64,000 bases of DNA, from the IMG/VR virus record IMGVR_UViG_3300021426_000086, positions 1-64,000 of that record; one strand, written 5' to 3'. The position numbers and the translations under genes were made by a program. This DNA is from a virus. Lineage: Duplodnaviria > Caudoviricetes. Under the pieces are notes generated by a model that did no database searches, had not been told where the DNA came from, and saw only the letters and a list, made by a program, of their open reading frames with translations. Shown one piece after another: positions 5,625 to 64,000 of this stretch. Position 1 is the first letter of the stretch; each line of letters opens with the position of its first letter.

Positions 5625-5817
5625 ATCGCCATAGATATTTAATTGATTTACACCGCAAAGATAGGCAAAGCGCAGCGAAAGTAACGGACATAAAAAACCG
5701 CCTATCTATCACAGACAAGCGGTAACGTAACCAATAATAAACTAATAGACCTAAACTATTAATACTACTAACCTAAAACATAAACTGTTGAAAATATTAC
5801 TATTGCGCATGTCACGT

Positions 5818-6144
5818 TTAAGAATTATCGGGTTGCTCGGCTTCCATATCGCAATTATTCACTGCACGGGGCTCTTGCGGCTCCAGGCCCTTTTGCACTG
5901 GCTCGCCATCTCTGCCATAAGTCTGGGTAAACTTGCAGGCGAATACGATGCCTGCGCCACCACCTATCAGATAACGCTCGATAAATATCCACCATTCGTC
6001 TGGCTGGATATTAAACTGTGCCATCGCCTCGTGTGCGGCAATAGCAGTGCCGCTCATCAGGCCGCCTATCCACATAAGCCGCTTAAAGAACACGGGCATG
6101 TGGTTGCGCCAGCGATTGTGTATGGTTTGCCAGAACTTACGCAT
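5818..6144 (-). CDS. Small membrane protein, holin-like
   Basis: Two hydrophobic segments (LMWIGGLMSGTAIAA; YLIGGGAGIVFAC) and a polar C-terminus. Confidence 0.4.
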   Translation of the reverse strand: MRKFWQTIHNRWRNHMPVFFKRLMWIGGLMSGTAIAAHEAMAQFNIQPDEWWIFIERYLIGGGAGIVFACKFTQTYGRDGEPVQKGLEPQEPRAVNNCDMEAEQPDNS

Positions 6145-6149
6145 ATATT

Positions 6150-6470
6150 TTATTGTCGGTTTACTTTCACACCTGGGTCGGAAATAAGTATCAGGTTTGA
6201 TAAGCCTTTTACCTCGGATAAGAGTCCTTGGATGTCGGTGCGAACACCGCCCATTTGCTCAATCATCTTCTTTTCGAGCGAGTTAATCTTTTCCAAAAAT
6301 CCATCTTGTTTAATAGAGTGGCTGTCGATGCGCTTCTGCTGACTCTCGACAGTACGTTCGAGAATAGCCACACGGGTGCGCAGGTTATGCACCCAACCAA
6401 TCAGTCCTGCAATGCCAGCAATGAGTGCAGGCAGCAGATATGGCCAAATATCATTCATCAAGTTGTTCAT
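6150..6470 (-). CDS. Membrane-anchored coiled-coil protein, holin/antiholin-like
   Basis: N-terminal TM helix (YLLPALIAGIAGLIGW) followed by a heptad-rich region. Confidence 0.4.
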   Translation of the reverse strand: MNNLMNDIWPYLLPALIAGIAGLIGWVHNLRTRVAILERTVESQQKRIDSHSIKQDGFLEKINSLEKKMIEQMGGVRTDIQGLLSEVKGLSNLILISDPGVKVNRQ

Positions 6471-6577
6471 TGCTTGACAGTATTTAATCTTTAGGTTCTA
6501 TAAAAATGGCGGCCCCGAGAAATTTTAGCCCGAGGCCGCCGGGAGAATATTAACCTTTTTAACTGGAGGGCGCAAAA

Positions 6578-7135
6578 CTACTCAGTTGGTGCGGGACCTA
6601 CCAATGTGTCGAAACCACCCTCGGGAACGGTTACGAACAGGTTGGGGTACTTAACTGGGCCAAGGGTAAGATTGACCGTAGTGATACGATCGTCGCCTGC
6701 AGCAGCGCCAGTGTCTGATGTCAGACCGCCGCTCTCAATGCGAATCTTCTTGTTGGCGTCGTACAAAATCTGAGCCTCGTCGCCGTCAGGCAGGATAACA
6801 AAAATATCCAAGTTGTTCAAGGCGCGAGCCAACTTGGCAATATCCTTATTCACTGCGTCGAACACCAGTGTAGCCACCAGGTTGAAACCTTTGCGCTTGC
6901 CCTGACTTTCGCCGGCAATCTTCTGACTCTCGGCCTTCAGCTCAACCTTAACCAGGCGTTTTGCATCGTCGGCAAAGTCGGTAGCTGCCAGGCTGTAAGT
7001 ATCGTCGGTAGCGGTAAGAGCCTTCTTGAGCTCAGAACGCAGACCAATATATGCGACCTCACCCAGGCCGGCGATGTTTTCCAAACAATCGTCGCTTGCC
7101 AGGTAGTTGGCCAATGCTGGACATGTCTGTGCCAT
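6578..7135 (-). CDS. Probable major tail (tube) protein
   Basis: 185 aa beta-rich protein immediately after the capsid gene; resembles Bacteroidales phage tube proteins. Confidence 0.5.
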   Translation of the reverse strand: MAQTCPALANYLASDDCLENIAGLGEVAYIGLRSELKKALTATDDTYSLAATDFADDAKRLVKVELKAESQKIAGESQGKRKGFNLVATLVFDAVNKDIAKLARALNNLDIFVILPDGDEAQILYDANKKIRIESGGLTSDTGAAAGDDRITTVNLTLGPVKYPNLFVTVPEGGFDTLVGPAPTE

Positions 7136-51593: not shown

Positions 51594-52104
51594 TACTTTG
51601 GGAGGGAGGAGGAATAAACGGAAAACCTGAATAATACTGGGAATGCGGCGCGGAGCCGCTTAAATACACGGAAAACTTTCACTTTGTTTAGTTGTGAGCG
51701 CTGGGGGAATCCGGGGCAAATTGGGGTATATCGGTAGTGATGTTTTACCCCTTTCGAGAAAAAGGTACAACCAAGGGTACAACAATTTTTCTCTATTTTG
51801 CTATCTCCGAGTTGCAATTTGGCGCTTTGCTGCGCTCGCTCACAAAATTTTTTTTGGGGGATTGGGGCATTGCTTCGTTCGCCATGATGGTGCGGCTGCA
51901 GGTGCTTTCGCCACCCTGAATCGCCGAATTTAACAGATGTACGGGGCACTACGGCGGCTTTTTTCGCACAATTTCGTCGATAACAACGCCTTTTGTAAAC
52001 ATTTCGATAGAAATCTTCGTCCACAACAAAATCACCCATGTAAAGATTTTAGAAACTAATAAAGTAAATAAAGTGAAACTAATAGATATAATAGGAGGAA
52101 TTGA

Positions 52105-53397
52105 ATGATGAATGCTACATTAACTATCATCCACGACCGCAAACGTAAGGCGGTTGGTACCAACAAAGAGGCTGTTTTGGAGGTTCGCGTCACCCGCCAC
52201 CGCCGCAGCATACACGTAAGCACTGGCATCAAGGTTCGCCACAGCGAGTGGGTGGCTGGTCGCGTGGTGGGCCGTCTCGATGCTCAGGTGCTCAACGATC
52301 AGCTGGCCATCATATATAATAAGGTGGGCTCGGCTGTTAACGATGCCATCCGCACGGGACAGCCGATTGATGCCGACGTTATCAAGCACAAGGTGTGGCA
52401 GGTGGCCGAGGAGCGCACCGATAAAGAAACGCTCATCGAGTGGTGCGCGGCGCAGATACCCGTGCTAAACATCAGCGAGGGGGCCAAGAAGCACTATCGC
52501 GCACTCATCAACCGATTGGATGAGTACCGCCGATTGCGCCGATTTGCCGACTGCACGCCCGAGGCTATCTGTCAGTTCGATGCGTGGCTGCACTCCCTGC
52601 GCCGGCCATCCACCAAAGCTGCCCAATCTGCCAAATCTGCCAGGGGACTGCCCCCTGGCATAACCGATAAGCTGCCAGGTAGCTGTCTCCTGGCAGATGT
52701 GCCCGTCACCTTCAGTCGCTTGGGCGATGGGCTCAGCGATGCGGGCGTGTATAACTATCATAAGTGCCTTAAAGCCCTGCTGCGCCGTGCCCGATTGTTC
52801 AACAAGATAGAAACTAACCCTTACGATTTATTAAGAGGCGAGTTCAAACGCGGCGACTGCGAAAACATCGAGTTCCTTACGTGGGATGAGATGCAGCGCA
52901 TCATCCATCTCAACCTGCCCGAAGGCAGCAAACTGCAACGCAGCCGCGACTTATTCGTTTTCCAAATGTTTACTGGTCTGGCCTATAGCGATGCCATGGC
53001 GTTCGACTTCTCGCAGTACCGATGGAATGGCTCGGCGTGGGTGTATCGTGGTCGCCGCGTAAAAACGGGAGTTCCCTTTGTCAGTCAGCTGCTGCCGCCG
53101 GTGGTAGATGTGCTGGAGCGCTATGGCGGACAGCCACCACGCATGGATAATGCCGACTACAATCACGAGCTCAAAACCATCGGCATGCTCGCCCAGTCGT
53201 CGTGCCCGCTCCACTCCCACCTGGCCCGCCACACCTTTGCCACGTGGATGCTGGCCAACGGCGTCAAGGTAGAAAATCTGCGCCGGATGCTGGGCCATAA
53301 GAATATCGCTCAAACCATGCGATACGCCAAGGTGCTCGACCAGTCGGTCATCGACGAATACCAGATGATTGAGGCCAAGCTCGATGCCAGGGGATAA
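52105..53397 (+). CDS. int: Tyrosine recombinase/integrase
   Basis: RDLFVFQMFTGLAYSD, HSHLARHTFATW, LGHKNIAQTMRYA; N-terminal arm-binding-like domain. Confidence 0.92.
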   Translation: MMNATLTIIHDRKRKAVGTNKEAVLEVRVTRHRRSIHVSTGIKVRHSEWVAGRVVGRLDAQVLNDQLAIIYNKVGSAVNDAIRTGQPIDADVIKHKVWQVAEERTDKETLIEWCAAQIPVLNISEGAKKHYRALINRLDEYRRLRRFADCTPEAICQFDAWLHSLRRPSTKAAQSAKSARGLPPGITDKLPGSCLLADVPVTFSRLGDGLSDAGVYNYHKCLKALLRRARLFNKIETNPYDLLRGEFKRGDCENIEFLTWDEMQRIIHLNLPEGSKLQRSRDLFVFQMFTGLAYSDAMAFDFSQYRWNGSAWVYRGRRVKTGVPFVSQLLPPVVDVLERYGGQPPRMDNADYNHELKTIGMLAQSSCPLHSHLARHTFATWMLANGVKVENLRRMLGHKNIAQTMRYAKVLDQSVIDEYQMIEAKLDARG

Positions 53398-53417
53398 AGT
53401 GAACCCTGACATAAGCT

Positions 53418-53457
53418 AAAACCCCGAGGATGACTATCGCAGTCGCCTCGGGGTTTC
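53418..53457. terminator. Terminator between the convergent integrase and endolysin genes
   Basis: AAACCCCGAGG...CCTCGGGGTTT inverted repeat. Confidence 0.7.
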
Positions 53458-53656
53458 AGTGAAACGCTTTTCAATCAATAATTCATTACTCTATTCACAT
53501 TATTAACATTAATGTATGAAAAAACCAACTTTGTTATGAATAACTAAAAACCTAATTACATTATTAAAAAAACTGCCCGAACCTCACGGCGGAGGCAGAA
53601 AAACAAATCTAATCTAAAACAATCTAACTTCAATAAAAGTATTATTATCAATGGAT

Positions 53657-54220
53657 TCAGAACTTCACGATGGTGCGGGCCTTGTCGTTCATCCGTAGGT
53701 AGCTCCATTGGATGCTGTTCAGGCGGTTAAGCCATCCCTGCAGAAACTTCTTCTGCGTGGGGTTGGCTCCCAGTCGGCGCAAATACTCCTCGCGCTCCTT
53801 CCATAGGCGATTGAATAGCTCGCGCTGATCAGGATAACCATTCAGCGCCGCGATGGTCTTGGGGCCTACTGCACCGTCCATCTTCACGCCCAGTATCTTC
53901 TGCGGCAGGCGTATGCCGTAAGCGCCGCTGTTCCAGTACCAGTCCACCACCAAGTTGGCTATGGCCTGGCTCTGTATCTTGTCGGCCTGCCATTTGTCCC
54001 AGTACACGGGCTTCATTATCTCGTATATGGCGTCGTACTCGGTTATCAGCATCACGTCGCGCTCGTCAATGTCGCCGTCGCAGTCCTTGTCGTAGCCATA
54101 TCGGCGCCATGTGGCCAGCGTCACGCCCTTGTTGGTAGCGCCGCCACGGTCGCCCTTCACTTTGTTGTAGCCGCCCTCAAAGCTGAGTATAAACGGCGCA
54201 AGAATTTCTAATTTCGCCAT
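53657..54220 (-). CDS. Endolysin, glycoside hydrolase family 108 with a peptidoglycan-binding domain
   Basis: EGGYNKVKGDRGGATNKGVT catalytic motif; DGAVGPKTIAAL; KFLQGWLNRL. Confidence 0.9.
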   Translation of the reverse strand: MAKLEILAPFILSFEGGYNKVKGDRGGATNKGVTLATWRRYGYDKDCDGDIDERDVMLITEYDAIYEIMKPVYWDKWQADKIQSQAIANLVVDWYWNSGAYGIRLPQKILGVKMDGAVGPKTIAALNGYPDQRELFNRLWKEREEYLRRLGANPTQKKFLQGWLNRLNSIQWSYLRMNDKARTIVKF

Positions 54221-54259
54221 AGTTCTAACTTTTTAGTGTTCATGCCAGGGGACAGGTGG

Positions 54260-54580
54260 TTAATGCGTAACCACCCTTTTGCCGTCGATTTCGATGATTA
54301 GATAGTCGCGTATGCGGCGTATCTGATTGCTCTCGCAGAATTTCACCATGCGCTGATGCTCGCGGGTGTAAACCTTCAGCGTTATCACCATGCCCTCGAT
54401 GAGTTCGCCTTTGCCGGTGATGGCCCGTATGTAGTACGGCTTTTGGCGCACCTGTTTGGCACCCTGCGGCGGATTAAATCCGCTCACCTCGGCGCCCGTC
54501 CGTGCGTCGCGCCACGTCCACACCTCGGTCAGCGCTCTTATCTGCTGCCAACTTATCGTCTGCTGTCCTATCCTCGGCAT
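54260..54580 (-). CDS. Hypothetical protein in the lysis cassette
   Basis: 106 aa; QIRRIRDYLIIEIDG C-terminus. Confidence 0.55.
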   Translation of the reverse strand: MPRIGQQTISWQQIRALTEVWTWRDARTGAEVSGFNPPQGAKQVRQKPYYIRAITGKGELIEGMVITLKVYTREHQRMVKFCESNQIRRIRDYLIIEIDGKRVVTH

Positions 54581-57015: not shown

Positions 57016-57269
57016 TTATAAATCGTGTTCGATGAATACACATAGGCTGGTGGAGCCTGTCATAATAGTGCCTGCGATGTGACCGCGATCAGTTACGCGG
57101 GCTCTACGGGTTATGCTTGAGGGGTAGTCGATGTCGAACACGCCCTGCGGGTCGCACTCGATGTAGCCTTGTTCGGTGGCTTGGCGGATTCGGAGCACGA
57201 TTTGCCCCCCCTCGCAGCGATTTCAAGGAACGGTCGGGATGATGTTTTATATATCATTGATTCACTCAT
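57016..57269 (-). other. MTase-associated cassette 13, out of frame (G7; G8 restores 84 aa)
   Basis: MSESMIYKTSSRPFLEIAARGG|QIVLRIRQATEQGYIECDPQGVFDIDYPSSITRRARV...FIEHDL; tract 57205-57211. Confidence 0.75.
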
Positions 57270-57460
57270 ATTCTATTAGTATTACCGTCTTTGGATAGTG
57301 AGCCAAGGTGAGGATATCTTCTGGCAGCTGCATGCCGTCGTAACGAGTATTGAGTGTGCAAACACATCCTCCAGTGGTAACATTGACTGGCAGGCAGTAC
57401 CCCCCCCCTAACAGGTTTGGCCGTAGCCTGATTGGTGCAGTGCAGTTTAATCGTATTCAT
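57262..57460 (-). other. Cassette 12, out of frame (G9; G8 restores 65 aa)
   Basis: MNTIKLHCTNQATAKPVRGG|YCLPVNVTTGGCVCTLNTRYDGMQLPEDILTLAHYPKTVILIEYE; tract 57400-57408. Confidence 0.75.
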
Positions 57461-57584
57461 ACTCTATCATTACCATTTGGTTGCGGTCGCTCATCGGGTT
57501 GGCACATACGCTGAAAGCATAGGGCTTGATGCTGAGCGATGGTTTGTCGCGGTCTCCTACTAATTGAATCATCCTATATCTCAT
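57447..57584 (-). CDS. Cassette 11 (45 aa, no tract; paralog of cassette 5)
   Basis: MRYRMIQLVGDRDKPSLSIKPYAFSVCANPMSDRNQMVMIEYEYD. Confidence 0.75.
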   Translation of the reverse strand: MRYRMIQLVGDRDKPSLSIKPYAFSVCANPMSDRNQMVMIEYEYD

Positions 57585-57717
57585 ACTCTATCATAACCTT
57601 TGGGATGTTGCCAGAACCTTCGCCGCTCTTGACGGCACGGCAAATGTCGTTGACGTAATACACATTCTGCGTGAACCACCACGACAGCCTCCCTATTCGC
57701 TTCTTAATCGTATTCAT
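57574..57717 (-). CDS. Cassette 10 (47 aa, no tract)
   Basis: MNTIKKRIGRLSWWFTQNVYYVNDICRAVKSGEGSGNIPKVMIEYEI. Confidence 0.75.
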   Translation of the reverse strand: MNTIKKRIGRLSWWFTQNVYYVNDICRAVKSGEGSGNIPKVMIEYEI

Positions 57718-57853
57718 ACTCAAATAAAATCGAAGTCATGCTGGCTTGCCCCCCCCTCAATAGGGTGGCAGCATAAAACTTGTAGCAGCCGGCAAGGATG
57801 GCCTTGGCGGTGCCGTCGCAGTTACTGTTGATGTATTGTATCTTAATCGTCAT
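57704..57853 (-). CDS. Cassette 9 (49 aa, G8 in frame)
   Basis: MTIKIQYINSNCDGTAKAILAGCYKFYAATLLRGGQASMTSILFEYEYD; tract 57749-57756. Confidence 0.75.
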   Translation of the reverse strand: MTIKIQYINSNCDGTAKAILAGCYKFYAATLLRGGQASMTSILFEYEYD

Positions 57854-57985
57854 ACTCTACAATAATCTTTGGAAGGCCGAAGTCGGTAGTTCCGATGCAA
57901 GGACACCAAGTACCCCCCCAACTATATCGACTACAGCGGCATGGTGCTGCATCGAACCTAATATAGTAATTACCTTATACGTCAT
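57843..57985 (-). other. Cassette 8, out of frame (G7; G8 restores 47 aa)
   Basis: MTYKVITILGSMQHHAAVVDIVGG|GTWCPCIGTTDFGLPKIIVEYDD; tract 57913-57919. Confidence 0.75.
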
Positions 57986-58162
57986 ATTCTATCAGTGCTA
58001 CAGTCATGGGATAGTGTGCCAGTGAGATGATGTTGGTTGGGCCAACGGCATCGTAACGGGTAGTGAGTGTGGCAGCGCAACTGTCGCCAGTGGTGTTGAT
58101 GGCTCTGATTTGCCCCCCCTAATGCGCTTAATCTTCCCAATATTCGTTGTTCTATATTTCAT
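57975..58162 (-). other. Cassette 7, out of frame (G7; G8 restores 62 aa)
   Basis: MKYRTTNIGKIKRIRGG|QIRAINTTGDSCAATLTTRYDAVGPTNIISLAHYPMTVALIEYDV; tract 58113-58119. Confidence 0.75.
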
Positions 58163-58333
58163 ACTCTATCAATATATACGGTGTGGTGTTATACATACCT
58201 GTGGCTGAATCTTTCCCAATACCCCCCCACATAGCGAGGTTATGGTGTTGCACGTCTGTTTTAGGTGATATTTTGAAACATCACCCTTTCCGCTGCCATG
58301 CCGCGTCCATCCTATAAATTTATATTTCAGCAT
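58152..58333 (-). other. Cassette 6, out of frame (G7; G8 restores 60 aa)
   Basis: MLKYKFIGWTRHGSGKGDVSKYHLKQTCNTITSLCGG|GIGKDSATGMYNTTPYILIEYEI; tract 58222-58228. Confidence 0.75.
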
Positions 58334-58457
58334 ACTCTATCAATATCATTTGGTTGCGGTCGCTCATCGGGTTAGCACATACGCTAAAAGCATAGGGCTT
58401 AATGCTTAGCGATGGGGCATCGCGGTCGCCTACCAGTTGTATCATGCTATATATCAT
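58320..58457 (-). CDS. Cassette 5 (45 aa, no tract)
   Basis: MIYSMIQLVGDRDAPSLSIKPYAFSVCANPMSDRNQMILIEYAEI. Confidence 0.75.
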   Translation of the reverse strand: MIYSMIQLVGDRDAPSLSIKPYAFSVCANPMSDRNQMILIEYAEI

Positions 58458-58602
58458 ACTCAACCAAAAAAGATGGTTCCCGATTACCCCCCCCCATACA
58501 GGTTAGCGCGGGGCAAACACCTTGCAGGCTCCATACACCATAGGCAAAGCCCGTGTTGTACTTAGGGTTCTTGCTATTGCCGAGATATATTACTCTATTC
58601 AT
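58447..58602 (-). CDS. Cassette 4 (51 aa, G9 in frame)
   Basis: MNRVIYLGNSKNPKYNTGFAYGVWSLQGVCPALTCMGGGNREPSFLVEYDI; tract 58487-58495. Confidence 0.75.
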   Translation of the reverse strand: MNRVIYLGNSKNPKYNTGFAYGVWSLQGVCPALTCMGGGNREPSFLVEYDI

Positions 58603-58888
58603 AACTCTCTCTCTATCCATACCAGATTATCTTTTTGTACTGATGTGATGGTGTTGGTGGCTTGCGACGACCCGAGTTCGATAACTTGGTGGAATGGTCG
58701 CTCGCCGTGCGGACCACGGAAGCCTACATCCTCTACATCGCGGTTCACCATTGCGCATACTCTCACATTACCCCCCCATATTCAGGGCAGCGGTTGCGCA
58801 GATAGGTTTCTGCACCGCGCCCTCGGCTGGCTGAAATCCTTACGGGTTTCATACCCTCACTTGGTTCTGTATCTTTAATCAGTATCAT
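58599..58888 (-). other. Cassette 3, out of frame (G7; G8 restores 96 aa)
   Basis: MILIKDTEPSEGMKPVRISASRGRG...CPEYGG|GNVRVCAMVNR...ATNTITSVQKDNLVWIEREL; tract 58771-58777. Confidence 0.75.
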
Positions 58889-59039
58889 ATTCTATCAATA
58901 CGCTTACATCGAATTTCGTTGCTTTCAGACTGCGAGATATGTCGGGCAGCGGTGGATGCACGAAGTCGGCTCGCACAAAGGCATAGATGCCGTAGTACCG
59001 CCTTGGGCATTGCCCCCCCCTCAATCCTTTATCACTCAT
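58875..59039 (-). CDS. Cassette 2 (54 aa, G8 in frame)
   Basis: MSDKGLRGGQCPRRYYGIYAFVRADFVHPPLPDISRSLKATKFDVSVLIEYDTD; tract 59013-59020. Confidence 0.75.
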   Translation of the reverse strand: MSDKGLRGGQCPRRYYGIYAFVRADFVHPPLPDISRSLKATKFDVSVLIEYDTD

Positions 59040-59240
59040 ATTCAGTAATCAATAAATTATCTTTCTGTACGCCGGTGATGGTGTTGCTGCAACCATCGGT
59101 GGCAGGGTAGTAGTTGCGGTCGGCAAAGTGGCAGTGCCCCCCCTGTCGCCGTAGGTGCGGCGCACTGCGCGGGCGTGCTCGGTTCGCACACCCCGCAGCA
59201 CGGAACTACTCACCACTTCTGGCTTGTGCAATTTCTTCAT
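59032..59240 (-). other. Cassette 1, out of frame (G7; G8 restores 69 aa)
   Basis: MKKLHKPEVVSSSVLRGVRTEHARAVRRTYGDRGG|HCHFADRNYYPATDGCSNTITGVQKDNLLITEYE; tract 59137-59143. Confidence 0.75.
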
Positions 59241-60525
59241 CGCTCAGCTTGTGATCTGTTACCACGTAGTGAATCTGTGCAGCCTCGGTGGCCTCATTCA
59301 CGGTCAGGAACTTAATCACCGAGTCGGGCTTCAGGAAAAAGCGCTCATCCACATTATCCTCCAGCACATCGGCTATGCACTTATCCAGTTCAAAGGGTCG
59401 CGGAAACTCATACTGTGTGCCATTCAGCAGGTCGGCACGTATGCTCACCATATACACTCGCTCGCGGTTCTGCGGCACGCCGTAGTGCTTGGCGTTCAGT
59501 ATGCCTGCCACGGTTTTGCGGTCGCGCTTGTCGGTGCCCCAAGGGATAGGGAACTGGGGTGCCAGAAAGTTCACGTAGCCGTGGCTCTCAAGCAGTTTGC
59601 ACCACTCTTTAAAATCGGGCATATTCACGCTGTTAATCAGCGCACGTACATTCTCCTGCAACAGCACCTTTGGGCGCATGTGGCGCACGGCTTCCTCGGT
59701 GCTCCACAGCACGGCACTGCGGGTGCCGCTGCCTTTCTTGATGCCCTCGCGCTTGCCGGCCTGACTGATGCTTTGGCAGGGGGTCGAATATGTCAGCAGG
59801 TCGATCTCGGCATCTTCAAGGTTGCTCCAGTCGGCCTTGGTCATATCGCCTCGGTTCAAGTCTTTGTACTGCGGAAACAGCAGGTTGTGGGCCACCACGG
59901 CTGGCTGCTCGTCCAGAGGGCGTGTGCTCTCGGGGTCGAACTCGCTCCATGCCATCAGCTTCCATCTAAAATCCTTATATCGCTGCTGCAGCATATCCAT
60001 GGCTATGGCTTGGCTATCGTAGCCGCTACATAATGTAACCAGTTTCAGTGGTTGTTTCTTCCAGTCGCGCGATAGTCGGAATTGTGGCAGTGCAAACAGG
60101 TCGGTTTGTTCGTTCGGCAGTCGGCGACCGGTGGGGTACATCAGTTCCTCGTAGATATACATCAGCACGTCGCACACTATCGAATTTCCTGCCAGCTTGT
60201 AGTGTGATGAGTTGGAGATAATCTGCACATCGCCGTAGCGCTGCTCTTGACTTGCAGCGATGATGGCCTGATAGGCTTGATCGTAATTCTGTCGTAATAG
60301 TGCGTTTTCCTCGGTATCAGCCTCCTGCTCCTCGGCTGTGATGCGCTGCAGGTCGGCATCGTCGGTTGGCATATCGTCGTCAGATGGTCGGTTCTCAAGG
60401 CTCTCTATGGCCTCGCGGTAGGCTTCGTCAACCTCTCGGCGTGTGGCACCGGGTTCCAGTCCGAATACGGTCAATTGGGCATCTACGCCCGTCCAGGCCA
60501 TATACGGTTTCTTTTCTGTTTTCAT
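59206..60525 (-). CDS. C5-cytosine DNA methyltransferase core, permuted (motifs X, I-VIII)
   Basis: YKLAGNSIV (X) precedes LVTLCSGYDSQ (I), WSEFD (II), TYSTPCQSIS (IV), LQENV (VI) and GVPQNRERVY (VIII); ATG at 60525 overlaps the upstream TGA. Confidence 0.9.
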   Translation of the reverse strand: MKTEKKPYMAWTGVDAQLTVFGLEPGATRREVDEAYREAIESLENRPSDDDMPTDDADLQRITAEEQEADTEENALLRQNYDQAYQAIIAASQEQRYGDVQIISNSSHYKLAGNSIVCDVLMYIYEELMYPTGRRLPNEQTDLFALPQFRLSRDWKKQPLKLVTLCSGYDSQAIAMDMLQQRYKDFRWKLMAWSEFDPESTRPLDEQPAVVAHNLLFPQYKDLNRGDMTKADWSNLEDAEIDLLTYSTPCQSISQAGKREGIKKGSGTRSAVLWSTEEAVRHMRPKVLLQENVRALINSVNMPDFKEWCKLLESHGYVNFLAPQFPIPWGTDKRDRKTVAGILNAKHYGVPQNRERVYMVSIRADLLNGTQYEFPRPFELDKCIADVLEDNVDERFFLKPDSVIKFLTVNEATEAAQIHYVVTDHKLSDEEIAQARSGE

Positions 60526-60872
60526 AAGTGTTGCAATCTGTGGGGGGGGGGTACTCCCATCAGACTGTAGCACTCTACAGGTGTAAGTTTTCGGATGTCG
60601 AAGTAGCGCACAGGGTGCGTTGGGTCCTTCTTGCCTTGCAAGTCGGGATGCCCGTCGGGATAAATTTTTGCAATCATAAATTTTCTGAGTTTATTTATAG
60701 TTCTTTCTTCGCATACGAAATAGTGGTTACGCGATGATATGCCTGCAAGTATGGTTATCGCTATCTGGCGATGCGCCTGCTGGTTGTAGGTGTCGAGCAT
60801 TTCGCCATGGTAGTCTGGCTCCCAATACCCCCCCTGAATCATTGCGTTTAGCCGCGAGTTATTATAGTTCAT
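60522..60872 (-). CDS. N-terminal MTase fragment: TRD-like module plus motif IX
   Basis: MNYNNSRLNAMIQGGYW...IRKLTPVECYSLMGVPPP; minus-strand C10 (plus-strand G10, 60542-60551) shifts it out of frame with the core; C11 or C8 would fuse them; in-frame G7 at 60828-60834. Confidence 0.85.
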   Translation of the reverse strand: MNYNNSRLNAMIQGGYWEPDYHGEMLDTYNQQAHRQIAITILAGISSRNHYFVCEERTINKLRKFMIAKIYPDGHPDLQGKKDPTHPVRYFDIRKLTPVECYSLMGVPPPHRLQHL

Positions 60873-61010
60873 ATTCAATCAGTATCTTAGGTTTGTCGGT
60901 ATCGTGCCCATTACCCCCCCTGCAAGGCAAAGGGCAGGCCCTTTGGGGCTTACCACTATGCCGTTTTGGCTGGGGCTGTACTGACCCAGAATAATAGGTT
61001 TATCGCTCAT
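60862..61010 (-). other. Cassette 0, out of frame (G7; G8 restores 49 aa)
   Basis: MSDKPIILGQYSPSQNGIVVSPKGPALCLAGG|GNGHDTDKPKILIEYEL; tract 60914-60920. Confidence 0.75.
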
Positions 61011-61324
61011 ACCTCGGGATGATTACTCTGCCTTGCACTCCATTCCAGGTTGGTGTAGTGATTATTGTCGCGGTTGCCATCCTTGTGCAGCACGTTAGGT
61101 AGGTTGTCGGGGTTGGGAATAAATGCCTCGGCCACCAGGCGGTGTACCTTAAACGTCTTACCCTGCAGACGCACGCGGCGGTAGCCTTTGCCATTGAAAG
61201 TGGCAATGCGGTGCCACGTCTTTGGGTCGCTCTCTGGGTTGGTGGTGCTCAGCACCTGACCATCATCAGTAACATAATAAATGGTTTTACCCTTCTGGTA
61301 AAATTTCTGAATTGTTGCTCTCAT
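61007..61324 (-). CDS. HNH endonuclease (NUMOD4/HNH_3 type)
   Basis: KVHRLVAEAFIPNPDNLPNVLHKDGNRDNNHYTNLEW. Confidence 0.9.
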   Translation of the reverse strand: MRATIQKFYQKGKTIYYVTDDGQVLSTTNPESDPKTWHRIATFNGKGYRRVRLQGKTFKVHRLVAEAFIPNPDNLPNVLHKDGNRDNNHYTNLEWSARQSNHPEV

Positions 61325-61384: not shown

Positions 61385-62632
61385 TCAGCGCCCCTGGCGG
61401 GCGAGGTGGATGGTGACGCTCTGGCCGAAGTATTGGCGGATGATGGCGTTAAACTGGTCGGCCTCTGTGCCGGTGGTCAGGCGGTCGGCCAACTGGGGTT
61501 GACTGCGATCGTACACGTAGGTAACGGTGTGCGACTGCTGCTTGTAGTTGCCAAACCACACGTCGGCACCGCTTAGCTCCATGTCCTGCTTCAGTCGCTC
61601 CCACACCTTCTCTTTTGCTGCCATTGCCTGCTCGGGTGTTAGTCCTGGCTCTGCCGCCTCGGCCTGTGCAAACATATCGGGCGTGGTGTCGGGTGCTGGC
61701 AGGTGGGCGTGGTTCACCACCACGTTGTAAGCCGTTCCCAGTGCCGTATGTTTTACGTGGAACACCACTGCCTCGGGGTCGCCCTTGCGGCGTGTGCCTG
61801 GGTAGTGCAGGTCGTAGGTGTATGTAATGTCGGTGGTTGGTGGCTCTTGGCTGGCCATGCGCTGCAAATCTTTCTGTACGGCATCCAGCACCTTCTGCTT
61901 AAAGTTCGAGAACATCGGATAGGCCGTGGCCGATATGCCCAGATACTCCTTCAGTTCCATCAGCGGAATGCGCACGTCGGTCTGCTCGGCGCCTTTGGGC
62001 AGTGCCCGCATCAGCAGCAGATATATGCGCGGTGTGCTGCGCTTGGTGCTGTAGAGTGCTATCATCTTCAGGTGGTTCACGTAGCCCTTACTCATGTCGA
62101 ATGCCCACTGTGCTGCGTCGGGGTTAATCTTCACGTCGATATATGCCGTCTTGCGTGGCACTGCATCGGGCTGTCCGTCCTTGCGTGTAAAGCTGTACCA
62201 GTCGCCCGTGTCTTTAAACCCGAACTGACTGAACACGTTGGTTCGCAGTATGCGCCCAGTTGGTCGGCCTTCGTCGTCAAACTCGGGATGATCCACCGCC
62301 ATGTTTATCTCGTCGATGGCCCGTCGGGCAGCTTCGTAGTTGCTGGGTTGCACTCCCAGGTCTTGCAGCCATATCCGCAGCGGTGGTATGCCCTCCTGCA
62401 GCACGTACTGACTGAATAGCGGCTTGGGTGTGCCTTTGGCTCGGTCCAGCTTCATGTCGTAGAATCGCTTAATGTATGGTGCCAGCACGTCCGTCACCAT
62501 CAGCAGCGCCTGTTGCTGTATCAGGCTCAGTCCTGCCATCAGTGTGGTGTACGTCCAAGGTGTCTTGCTCCATGTGCGCTGTTCCACCATCTGCTGCATC
62601 AGCTCTAATTGCGTTAAACTATTATTTGGCAT
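61385..62632 (-). CDS. Plasmid-type replication initiator (Rep_3/RepB family)
   Basis: LSLIQQQALL, YSTKRSTPRIYLLL and IPLMELKEYLGI...YPMFSNFKQKVLD winged-helix pattern. Confidence 0.7.
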   Translation of the reverse strand: MPNNSLTQLELMQQMVEQRTWSKTPWTYTTLMAGLSLIQQQALLMVTDVLAPYIKRFYDMKLDRAKGTPKPLFSQYVLQEGIPPLRIWLQDLGVQPSNYEAARRAIDEINMAVDHPEFDDEGRPTGRILRTNVFSQFGFKDTGDWYSFTRKDGQPDAVPRKTAYIDVKINPDAAQWAFDMSKGYVNHLKMIALYSTKRSTPRIYLLLMRALPKGAEQTDVRIPLMELKEYLGISATAYPMFSNFKQKVLDAVQKDLQRMASQEPPTTDITYTYDLHYPGTRRKGDPEAVVFHVKHTALGTAYNVVVNHAHLPAPDTTPDMFAQAEAAEPGLTPEQAMAAKEKVWERLKQDMELSGADVWFGNYKQQSHTVTYVYDRSQPQLADRLTTGTEADQFNAIIRQYFGQSVTIHLARQGR

Positions 62633-62660
62633 AGCGTTTTTGCTGTTTTTTTAGTGCTTA

Positions 62661-62855
62661 AACTATATCTTTGTTAGAGTAAACCGCCCTGTATCGCCCT
62701 GTTTATGCGGGTTTTTGCCCTCGGTAATATACTTATACGCCACTCTATAAAGGCTGAGAAATAATATAAATATAGTAATGTATGTATATTTACTCTAACC
62801 GAAATATAGTTTAGGCGGTGTTTTGGGGTGCGATTACTATAACCGATTTATAGTT
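62661..62855. repeat. Three 22-bp iteron-like repeats upstream of Rep
   Basis: TTACTCTAACCGAAATATAGTT (62790-62811), TTACTATAACCGATTTATAGTT (62834-62855) and an inverted variant (62661-62682) in an AT-rich gap. Confidence 0.65.
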
Positions 62856-63229
62856 CAGGCGTTTTTCCCCTCCTGTCGGTCCAGCCAGTCGATGATGGCC
62901 TCGCCTGCTATCTGGGCTATATTCTGCTTGCGCAGAGTTTTCTGCTGCATCAGTCGCATGTAGTCCTTCAGTGGCAGATACGTTTGCACACCCTTGGTGT
63001 CAGGCCCCTTTAGGCCGATGATTTGTTCAGCTGCCTGGGGACTGGTACCTGGCAGGGCACTCTCGTTGGCTTGGTAGCTGCCAGGTACCTGTCCCCTGGC
63101 AGGTGCAGTTGCGTCTGATGGCGCAGCGGCTGTGCCGCCGTCGCTCGGCTTCTGATAGCCGCGAGTGATACGCTTTTCGGCGTCGTTCACCAAGCTATTC
63201 TCGATATCGTCAAAATTCCATTTTTCCAT
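62855..63229 (-). CDS. Candidate ParA partner (ParG/RHH-like adaptor)
   Basis: Directly follows parA; flexible N-terminus, C-terminal KGVQTYLPLKDYMRL...IAQIAGEAIIDWL strand-helix-helix pattern. Confidence 0.4.
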   Translation of the reverse strand: MEKWNFDDIENSLVNDAEKRITRGYQKPSDGGTAAAPSDATAPARGQVPGSYQANESALPGTSPQAAEQIIGLKGPDTKGVQTYLPLKDYMRLMQQKTLRKQNIAQIAGEAIIDWLDRQEGKNA

Positions 63230-63240
63230 AACGTCTATAA

Positions 63241-64000
63241 TTAATGTTGAAACATCTCCCTCACCAGTTCATCATAGGCGTTGGCCGCACTCTGCTTTTC
63301 GCGGCGGGGCAGGCCCTCTCCGTACTCATACACATCCTGCTTCTTGGTCTGCGCCTCCGTTACTTTTATCTCGCGTGGTATCACCGTGCGCAGCACTCGG
63401 TCGCCATAGGCACGGCGCAGATACTCCATAAAGCCTCGCGATATGTTCGGTCGTGCGTCCACCATCGTGGGCAGTATGCCTCGCAGTGCCAGTTTGTCGT
63501 TCAGCAGCTCGCGCACCTCCTTCAGCTGGTTCAGTATAGGTGCCAGAGCGTTCACTGGCAGTCCCTCCATCTGCACGGGCACCAGCAGGCTGTCGGCTGC
63601 ACCCATCGCGTTCATCGTGCGCATTGATAGGTCGGGCGGGCAGTCAATCAGCACGTAGTCGAAGTAGTCCTCAATGCTGGTGATGCCGTGGCCTGATAAG
63701 TCCTCGGGTTCAGCATGCAGCAGTCGGTCAAGCACCTTGTTTGGTGCCAACTGCTTCACCAGTGCGGGGTCGATACACTGCAGCTCGGGGCTTGCCGGTG
63801 TGTAGTATATGCTGCCGCCCGTCTGCAGCAGTCGCTCGTAGATGGGCAACTTGCCGCTGCTCGTCGCCATCGCGTCGGTCAGCGTAGGCGTCACCATCTG
63901 GTCGGGTTGCGCCCCCATCAGTTTTGTCAGATCGCCGCTTGGGTCCATGTCGATTACCAGTATGCGCCAGTACTGGCGATAGCGCACCATAGCGGCTGCC
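63241..64000 (-). CDS. parA: ParA family partition ATPase, 5' end beyond the window
   Basis: ILVIDMDPSGDLT, DYVLIDCPPDL, LLVPVQME and LRGILPTMVD motifs. Confidence 0.88.
   Translation of the reverse strand, partial: AAAMVRYRQYWRILVIDMDPSGDLTKLMGAQPDQMVTPTLTDAMATSSGKLPIYERLLQTGGSIYYTPASPELQCIDPALVKQLAPNKVLDRLLHAEPEDLSGHGITSIEDYFDYVLIDCPPDLSMRTMNAMGAADSLLVPVQMEGLPVNALAPILNQLKEVRELLNDKLALRGILPTMVDARPNISRGFMEYLRRAYGDRVLRTVIPREIKVTEAQTKKQDVYEYGEGLPRREKQSAANAYDELVREMFQH

Follow-up and report, generated by a model that had tools for sequence, protein, structure and literature searches.

A 64,000-nucleotide stretch of phage DNA, hereafter the window, was analysed; it covers positions 1-64,000 of the 75,365-bp record IMGVR_UViG_3300021426_000086, a rumen-type phage of the Caudoviricetes. 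Near its end lies a gene for a C5-cytosine methyltransferase (C5-MTase), flanked by an array of very short coupled genes, here called cassettes, most of which contain a run of G residues. All genes of the array are on the minus strand, so that C runs on the plus strand correspond to poly-G on the coding strand. Relatives were fetched from IMG/VR; L numbers (L002-L061) designate related contigs, and P numbers homologous methyltransferase (MTase) proteins.

Results

An array of mini-genes around a methyltransferase core

Thirteen mini open reading frames (mini-ORFs, D1-D13) lie downstream of the MTase core and one (U2) upstream of it, and three-frame translation combined with one-base edits of the tracts gives restored lengths of 45-96 aa (Table 1). 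A tract of G7-G9 at glycine codons is present in 11 of the 14 cassettes, three of which are in frame (D2, D4 and D9) and eight off by one base; seven of the latter need +1 (U2, D1, D3, D6, D7, D8 and D13) and one, D12, needs -1. This inventory reproduces exactly the unit count, lengths and tract states listed in an initial annotation of the same DNA, whose further claim that a one-base change restores the family motifs and the C-terminal tail was borne out: all restored peptides terminate in a tail of the hydrophobic-IEY(E/D) type. That annotation did not contain U1, an ORF lying between U2 and the core that is itself a cassette.

Table 1. Genes and homopolymer tracts of the methyltransferase locus and the gene preceding it. 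ON, in frame; OFF, out of frame with the base change needed.
Feature	Position	Strand	ATG	Tract and state	Family, match or basis
HNH_3 homing-endonuclease-like gene	61007..61324	-			PF13392, E 4.9e-8; PADLOC HEase, E 2.7e-14
U2	60862..61010	-	61010	G7 60914-60920, OFF, +1	Family A1 (...SPSQNGIVVSP...GGGNGHD...ILIEYEL)
U1	60522..60872	-		G7 60828-60834, in frame; C10	TRD cassette fused to pre-IX strand and motif IX (RKLTPVECYSLMGVP); translation; weak PHROG DNA-methyltransferase match
Poly-C tract between motifs IX and X	60542..60551	-		C10	Homopolymer scan; comparison of relatives
MTase catalytic scaffold (core)	59206..60525	-			PF00145, E 1.5e-36; PADLOC MTase_II; motifs read in translation; family alignment
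D1	59032..59240	-	59240	G7 59137-59143, OFF, +1	NTITGVQKDN family
D2	58875..59039	-	59039	G8 59013-59020, ON	
D3	58599..58888	-	58888	G7 58771-58777, OFF, +1	RISASRGRG...NTITSVQKDN family, 96 aa
D4	58447..58620	-	58620	G9 58487-58495, ON	PALTCMGGGN...
D5	58320..58457	-	58457	No tract	Paralogue of D11
D6	58152..58333	-	58333	G7 58222-58228, OFF, +1	FIGWTR...CNTITS...GGGIGKDS family
D7	57975..58162	-	58162	G7 58113-58119, OFF, +1	RGGQIRAIN...ATLTTRYD family
D8	57843..57985	-	57985	G7 57913-57919, OFF, +1	GTTDFGLP family
D9	57704..57853	-	57853	G8 57749-57756, ON	
D10	57574..57717	-	57717	No tract (SGEGSGN replaces G run)	
D11	57447..57584	-	57584	No tract	Paralogue of D5
D12	57262..57460	-	57460	G9 57400-57408, OFF, -1	CTLNTRYDGMQLPEDIL family
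D13 (last array unit)	57016..57269	-	57269	G7 57205-57211, OFF, +1	VRQATEQGYIEC family, 84 aa; family member matches phrog_16427 'DNA methyltransferase', E 1.1e-4

The window contains 13 G/C homopolymers of at least seven nucleotides, all inside 57205-60920. Twelve are C7-C9 on the plus strand, and the 13th is a G10 on the plus strand (60542-60551), which reads as poly-C (C10) on the coding strand. Neither the remainder of the window nor the rest of the 75,365-bp record contains another G/C run of at least seven, so that the confinement of such runs to the locus, claimed at first for the window, holds even for the complete record. The expected number of these runs, from a first-order Markov model fitted to the window outside the locus, is 0.22 in the 3,995-bp locus, where 13 were observed, and 3.3 in the other 60 kb, where 0 were observed. 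Runs of seven to nine A or T number 17 across the whole window and are unclustered.

Three independent assemblies of the phage (IMG/VR, ENA ERZ12302851 and Logan SRR873600) match one another over 8.7-8.8 kb with 100% identity, all 13 tract lengths included, which argues that the frame states are not assembler noise, with the caveat that the assemblies may share the same reads. When its MTase, Rep-like and 260-aa proteins were used to look for the phage in other samples, these three contigs alone were recovered.

A circularly permuted scaffold that ends before any recognition domain

The core ORF carries, in this order, motifs X (GNSIVCDVL), I (LCSGYDSQ), IV (PCQ), VI (ENV) and VIII (QNRER), followed by the first part of the variable region, and ends ahead of any target-recognition domain (TRD). 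Motif IX (RKLTPVECYSLMG) sits in U1 and not in the core ORF, so that the conserved C5-MTase motifs I, IV, VI, VIII, IX and X are all present in the two genes. U1 terminates just past its C10 tract, with a TGA that overlaps the start codon (ATG) of the core. The two are joined in a single ORF in relatives (514 aa in L010; also in L034, which has C8), and P0008 is likewise a permuted single ORF. The order IX, X, I-VIII in one ORF of these relatives identifies the enzyme as a circularly permuted C5-MTase, with motifs IX and X N-terminal of motif I and the break in the variable region; in the present phage, C10 interrupts the ORF between motifs IX and X.

The absence of a TRD from the scaffold is the usual condition of the family. 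In an alignment of 35 homologues, at least 90% start with MIAKIYPDGH, about 25 residues ahead of motif IX, and they end before any TRD; with both termini excluding it, the usual scaffold has no recognition domain of its own. L010 has a clean TRD-less scaffold ORF of 514 aa, upstream of whose ATG only separate, partly degenerate cassettes are found, and in L005-L008 a cassette of the U1 type is out of frame, with its stop 30-80 nt ahead of the MIAK start. Hundreds of clusters of the scaffold family exist in public metagenomes. The scaffold gene of L017 (IMGVR_UViG_2602041664, 5677-6965) has a frameshift directly after motif IV (PCQSI), possibly a sequencing error or the mark of an inactive copy.

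The length of the poly-C tract decides whether U1 and the core are read as one chain. C8 or C11 would join them in one frame, and C10 gives either two chains or an OFF scaffold. At the same site, C8 (fused) is found in L034-L040 and C7 (split) in L032. Other lineages have a poly-C tract inside motif IX instead (KLTPPEC, written ACC CCC CCC), with C8 in L003, L006 and L007 and C9 in L008 (around 5945 in L003, L004, L006 and L007; L008:4048). With the tract after motif IX in one case and inside it in the other, the two lineages would have acquired this candidate master switch at separate sites.

The cassettes are target-recognition domains kept as separate genes

The layout of the window, with many tracts, recurs in L002-L009. 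In L011-L017, whose scaffold is 56-58% identical, the same cassette families lack tracts altogether, are in frame throughout and keep the stop/start overlaps; one of them reads FLFWGQ where the tract lineage reads RGGGQ. Comparison of cassette content across these related phages therefore recovers the same families with or without tracts, and their order and side of the scaffold are shuffled. There are at least 13 unrelated families with only the tail in common, which is compatible with distinct targets; a profile-profile comparison of two families aligned only the 9-residue tail. Orthologues of U2 are present in L002-L017.

Several families also occur fused to the enzyme. Family A1, that of U2, forms the C-terminus of the 482-aa permuted MTase P0008 (which ends ...KILLEYE) and lies before motif IX in P0013. 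Family C precedes motif IX in P0228 and P0229, where the fused cassette is of the D12 family, and family 5 does so in L017, where it is of the D6 family. The fusions in P0008, P0013, P0228/P0229, L017 and U1, together with the modelled pose described below, place the cassettes between motifs VIII and IX, where the TRD of a C5-MTase lies. A TRD can thus be fused at either end of the scaffold, which implies that in nature either connection can be severed; in the free cassettes, both are. From these sequence comparisons we conclude that the mini-ORFs are real C5-MTase target-recognition domains. The cis fusions support their initial reading as modules of the MTase variable region, and the suggestion that this region has been cut into separate peptides gains from the tract-less in-frame mini-genes, the TRD-less scaffolds and the codon bias at the cassette tails (see below).

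An exhaustive profile search with family A1 over 1.84 billion representatives yielded 76 matches, nearly all of 33-162 aa, about one-third of which align only up to the tract and correspond to gene calls made in the OFF state. When each side of the tract is read in its restored frame, the ratio of non-synonymous to synonymous polymorphism (pN/pS) amounts to 0.41 for the part preceding the tract and 0.23 for the part following it, both well below 1, which establishes purifying selection on both halves of the cassettes. The tracts themselves are written in an unusual way. GGG is the rarest glycine codon of the long ORFs (56/906, 6%), and cassettes of the tract lineage encode Gly-Gly-Gly as GGG GGG GGN, often after AGG or CGG; tract-less relatives encode the same residues as GGT GGT GGT, GGC GGC GGC or GGT GGA GGT. 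Codon choice thus indicates that the tracts are kept by selection at the nucleotide level.

The two tract-less cassettes D5 and D11 are paralogues (MIQLVGDRD...SIKPYAFSVCANPMSDRNQM...), pointing to a recent duplication within the array. With G8 instead of G9, D4 would read through into D5 and give a 99-aa fusion. In some cassettes of relatives (L002:7566, L005:7592), poly-C tracts of C8-C9 coding for Pro-Pro replace poly-G, and one tract of L032 (at about 8490) is as long as G11.

A look-up of one cassette in the ESM Atlas returned only a sub-threshold lead. Among GenBank phages, a DNA search with the locus gave no match, and a protein search gave at most 45% identity over 56% of the scaffold; no cultured phage with the system was found there.

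Junctions probably couple the cassettes

The consensus TgATaGAgTATGA is present at every unit boundary, with the next ATG embedded in the TATGA of the preceding tail and the stop codon 8-14 nt past that ATG. At the head of the array, the start of D1 overlaps the 3' end of the core by 35 nt. Each cassette has its own ATG and stop, an arrangement different from the tandem TRDs in a single polypeptide of the SPR/phi3T type. The tyrosine codon of the tail is TAT in 74 of 78 cassettes, against 227 of 536 (42%) in long ORFs, a bias that preserves the following start codon.

The reading frames not used by the cassettes also tend to remain open. In the 48 cassettes whose tract is followed by at least 20 codons, one off-frame is open as far as the junction zone in 25 and the other in 18. 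With synonymous recoding the corresponding numbers are 12.7 ± 2.1 and 9.1 ± 2.4, and 0 of 300 simulations matched the observed values, a significance that is overstated because orthologous cassettes are not independent. To judge from the reading frames, this openness fits an arrangement in which the state of a cassette does not keep ribosomes from the following start codon.

A scan of the array for sigma-70 promoters and terminators, a search ill-suited to Bacteroidota, gave no excess over shuffled sequences. A polyprotein produced by programmed frameshifting at each junction was considered and rejected: no slippery or stimulatory element is present, the distance to the stop varies between 8 and 14 nt, and tract-less relatives keep the same layout.

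Tract lengths change between near-identical contigs

The clearest record of switching comes from L034-L040, seven contigs from seven bovine or rumen samples that encode the same MTase of 547 aa, with 0-5 substitutions over 5-10 kb. Four of their tracts vary by ±1 G, so that four ON/OFF combinations occur, all but one of them in at least two samples. With each of these changes, the product of a cassette alternates between the complete peptide with its tail and a truncated form; the orthologue of D1, for instance, has G8 (ON) or G9 (OFF), and that of D6 toggles between G8 and G7. Outside the tracts, the same contigs differ by two indels and by 5 substitutions each in L038 and L039. One indel, of 15 nt, lies exactly at a cassette junction in L037 (L034:6777), and the other, of 101-121 nt, is in a neighbouring large gene in L035 and L037 (L034:1612).

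A second lineage behaves in the same way: L060 and L061 differ by two tract changes without any substitution, and comparison of L055 with either L056 or L057 gives one substitution and one tract change. Compared over 3-10 kb, these two related lineages thus have 0-5 substitutions yet one-G differences in their tracts, which establishes tract polymorphism in relatives of the phage. Among more distant pairs, 7 of the 14 indels between L007 and L008 (96.6% identical) and 2 of the 3 between L003 and L004 fall in tracts. The orthologue of D7 is ON in L003, L005 and L008 and OFF in L006 and L007, and that of D9 is OFF in L005. In the window and L002-L009 together, 29 tracts are ON and 44 OFF, near the one-third ON expected by chance. 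Two features of contingency loci are accordingly found here, namely homopolymers inside coding regions that shift the frame between full-length and truncated products and, in L034-L040 and L055-L061, tract lengths far more variable than other sites.

A free cassette is predicted to dock in the empty recognition site

The modelling of a restored cassette with the scaffold, proposed in the initial annotation, was carried out with the TRD-less scaffold of L010 and a free A1 cassette, with alignments as input. The complex obtained a score of 0.81 (0.81, 0.78 and 0.81 in separate runs), against 0.00 for the best of three controls. The score mark applied is met by 58 of 80 solved complexes and by 2 of 110 mismatched pairs, counts that hold only roughly for our own alignments. 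At least 79% of the contacts agreed between runs, and the predicted local distance difference test value (pLDDT) of the partner was at least 70. In the model, residues 48-50 of the cassette tail contact residues 27-29 of the scaffold, in the strand before motif IX, and the central loop of the cassette (residues 29-33) contacts residues 422-425, in motif VIII; further contacts involve motif X and the start of the variable region. The modelled cassette would thus occupy the canonical TRD position, left empty in this scaffold, which supports the predicted binding.

Genomic neighbourhood and other split enzymes

The HNH_3 gene precedes the array, and its TGA overlaps the ATG of U2 (ATGA); we treat it as upstream context only. 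An HNH gene is also found directly before an A1 cassette in L010 (4847-5134), and L032 has one 1.5 kb ahead of its scaffold. The HNH_3 gene could represent a mobile element or, alternatively, a nuclease that partners the methylase. Further upstream (61385-64000) lie a Rep_3-like initiator (Rep3_C, E 1.2e-4) and a ParA-type ATPase, and downstream of the array (52000-54300) are lysis and integrase genes. For the identical contigs L041 and L043, the gene tables include a PF00589 integrase, a Glyco_hydro_108 protein and an NAD-dependent ligase. The neighbourhood as a whole would fit a phage-plasmid. The bovine and rumen origin of the samples and a named homologue from a Prevotella metagenome-assembled genome indicate that the host of the phage is probably a rumen Prevotella.

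The closest matches in cultured phages (29-33% identity) are from the Bacillus phages Hobo, BM15, BCP01 and JBP901, whose annotation divides the C5-MTase between two adjacent genes; they may be additional cases of natural splitting among phage C5 enzymes.

Discussion

Taken as a whole, the locus is likely to encode a modular multispecific C5-MTase with free, tract-switched TRD modules, expressed from a coupled array and serving a bet-hedging role. One gene would provide a permuted catalytic scaffold (motifs IX, X and I-VIII and the start of the variable region) devoid of its own recognition domain. The 14 flanking mini-genes would provide free target-recognition modules of 45-96 aa, and a fifteenth module would be fused before motif IX. 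The IEY(E/D) strand of a module is predicted to pair with the YFDIRKL strand ahead of motif IX, placing the variable body beside motif VIII. Since the module body would then stand at the normal TRD site, one scaffold could load different modules and methylate several sequences. We infer that scaffold and modules assemble in trans, that the assembled enzymes are active and differ in specificity, and that translational reinitiation and the ecological role are as outlined here.

Termination and reinitiation would proceed along the chain of genes because each ATG lies inside the TATGA of the previous tail. An OFF module would probably leave the modules downstream of it unsilenced, as off-frames tend to be open up to the junction. 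Slippage by ±1 G during replication would make the ON/OFF state of each of the 11 modules whose tract is built from the rare GGG codon heritable and reversible, and the poly-C tract of the scaffold would act as a master switch, which in its present C10 state parts motif IX from the rest of the enzyme. The 2^11 states evoked in the initial annotation are a theoretical ceiling only. The likely benefit would be bet-hedging, in which methylated motifs guard against Type II restriction by the host and may expose the phage to methylation-dependent nucleases. Extended to the rumen and gut phage clade as a whole, the proposal that the TRD has become a free, exchangeable subunit with a universal docking strand, present as a coupled array of a dozen or more with insulated switches, providing a combinatorial and heritable form of epigenetic bet-hedging, is on balance the way we lean, and only by a little.

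Several observations weigh against this interpretation. The phage is probably known from one sample, and its tract lengths are identical in three assemblies; we therefore infer switching in this phage from its relatives. The independent ON/OFF switching supposed at the outset accordingly rests on the two related lineages with ±1 G changes and may extend to the phage itself, whose tracts are fixed in the assemblies. In a third lineage (L045-L050), six near-identical contigs have no tract change. Searches with the cassettes also gave little: a Pfam search of U1 and three cassettes, and profile searches of PDB sequences with families A1 and A2, found no match, TRDs being very variable, and a PHROG search of the cassette profiles was mostly without match, with one family only reaching E 1.1e-4. 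TRDs are in general too variable for similarity searches against solved or curated MTases. At the level of the enzyme, C10 frameshifts the scaffold between motifs IX and X, and the genome as sequenced may have the entire system switched OFF; the cis TRD of U1 could out-compete free modules. The score of the modelled complex may reflect likeness to a single-chain C5-MTase, as for the two halves of a split gene, and the off-frame statistics are inflated by orthology, as pointed out above.

The frame of OFF cassettes could also be restored at the level of expression, by transcriptional slippage or ribosomal frameshifting at the G runs, so that the tracts would act as expression dimmers in a fixed genome. 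Slippage of RNA polymerase on homopolymers is well known, and recoding would explain purifying selection on both halves of OFF cassettes as well as the fixed tract lengths in the three assemblies of the phage and in the six contigs L045-L050. We nevertheless hold this to be unlikely, given that ±1 changes occur at the DNA level between near-identical contigs of two lineages and recur in more than one sample, that every family has an ON length somewhere, and that tracts drift between 7 and 10 G around the in-frame length. The RNA-level and DNA-level mechanisms are not mutually exclusive.

The structure of the junctions bears on a second alternative, a silent reservoir of TRD cassettes comparable to pilS or vls donors, in which recombination at the 13-nt junction or at a tract creates a cis-fused enzyme. 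Donors need no start codon, yet the TAT bias preserves the ATG, and the N-terminal segments are conserved in the frame that it sets. Avoidance of off-frame stops would be pointless in silent DNA, most scaffolds have no cis TRD, and no recombinase adjoins the array. Moreover, the cassettes are all in one orientation, so that recombination between them would delete DNA irreversibly. We therefore find a reservoir quite improbable, even though it would account for the shuffled order and side of the cassettes in relatives, the fused forms that occur in nature, the 13 repeats of the junction, the 15-nt junction indel that separates L034 from L037 and the duplication of D5 and D11.

Fused enzymes weigh against a third possibility, that the cassettes are TRD-derived mini-proteins without a role in specificity, which inhibit or retarget host MTases or restriction enzymes, or occupy the TRD site of the scaffold non-catalytically. 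This would suit cassettes that lack motif IX in a genome that already has a cis TRD (U1). The same families are the only TRD of the cis-fused enzymes, the modelled pose is the canonical TRD position, and scaffolds without a TRD, like that of L010, would be left unable to recognise DNA, which makes such a role very improbable.

Finally, homopolymer sequencing errors in cassettes that are really all in frame, or decay into pseudogenes, have hardly any probability left: homopolymers are error-prone on some platforms and seven of the eight OFF cassettes are one G short, but three assemblers gave the same lengths, variant lengths recur in independent samples, the ON fraction (29/73) is near the one-third expected for random frames, and decay is excluded by pN/pS values far under 1 for either half of the cassettes and by conservation across lineages differing by at least 40%. 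A systematic undercount of G runs was rejected as well, G7, G8 and G9 each being in frame at some cassettes of the same genome.

The modular C5-MTase that we favour has partial counterparts among known systems. Multispecific C5-MTases of Bacillus phages (M.SPRI, M.Phi3TI, M.Rho11sI and M.H2I) carry tandem TRDs in one chain. They resemble the present system in having one catalytic core, several short exchangeable TRDs (about 40-50 aa in their case) and a presumed anti-restriction role. Their TRDs are in tandem between motifs VIII and IX of an enzyme of canonical order and are always expressed, whereas here they are separate genes, mostly switched by frameshift, around a permuted TRD-less scaffold. 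The T(L/I) dipeptide pointed out in the initial annotation may be a further link between the cassettes and TRDs of the SPR type.

C5-MTases tolerate natural splitting, as in M.AquI and M.EcoHK31I, complementation between fragments, and circular permutation within the variable region; complementation has been engineered for M.SssI, M.HaeIII and others (PMC3404938, PMC5944983). M.AquI and M.EcoHK31I are cut in or near the variable region and reassemble there from separate chains; unlike the system described here, they consist of two fixed halves with one specificity, with no free TRD-only subunit and no choice of subunits. Circularly permuted C5-MTases also exist in nature, namely M.BssHII, M.Alw26I, M2.Eco31I, M.Esp3I and M2.BsaI (PMC5944983). 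As in our scaffold, motifs IX and X of the M.BssHII type precede motifs I-VIII and the permutation point lies in the variable region. There, however, the TRD is retained in the chain; here the break falls on both sides of the TRD, which is left out.

Stochastic and reversible changes of methylation are known from phase-variable Type III mod and Type I hsdS/hsdM systems, or phasevarions (PMC7383803, PMC11868660). In these and in multi-hsdS shufflons, repeats or cassette exchange alter methylation, and Type I enzymes have a separate specificity subunit. Those systems involve adenine methylases of bacteria and rely on a single switch or on a few half-genes that recombine, in contrast to a phage C5 enzyme with up to 11 homopolymer switches on its putative specificity subunits, plus one or more scaffold tracts. 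In phages, poly-G tracts have been described in receptor-binding proteins of Campylobacter Fletchervirus phages (Sorensen 2021, as related in 10.1101/2025.10.21.683753), and contingency loci in T2 and T4 (10.1101/2025.10.21.683753). These share with the present locus the use of hypermutable homopolymers for bet-hedging; unlike it, they affect receptor binding or single genes and not an array of MTase specificities. Our literature search found no description of a C5 enzyme with free TRD-only subunits that are arrayed and individually switched by homopolymers. The initial annotation, which knew of no description of the layout, is thus corroborated by both the literature and the GenBank phages searched.

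Provided that the modules act in trans, the enzyme would be the first C5-MTase with a detachable specificity subunit and, with 11 switches and a master switch in a 4-kb operon, the most multiplexed phase-variable methylation system described. It would also show phages of restriction-rich hosts hedging between Type II and methylation-dependent restriction. Such arrays are relevant to the reading of phage methylomes and host range in metagenomes, where gene callers miss or truncate most of the mini-genes. The small TRD peptides with their common docking tail may further constitute a compact natural toolkit for engineering the specificity of cytosine methylation.

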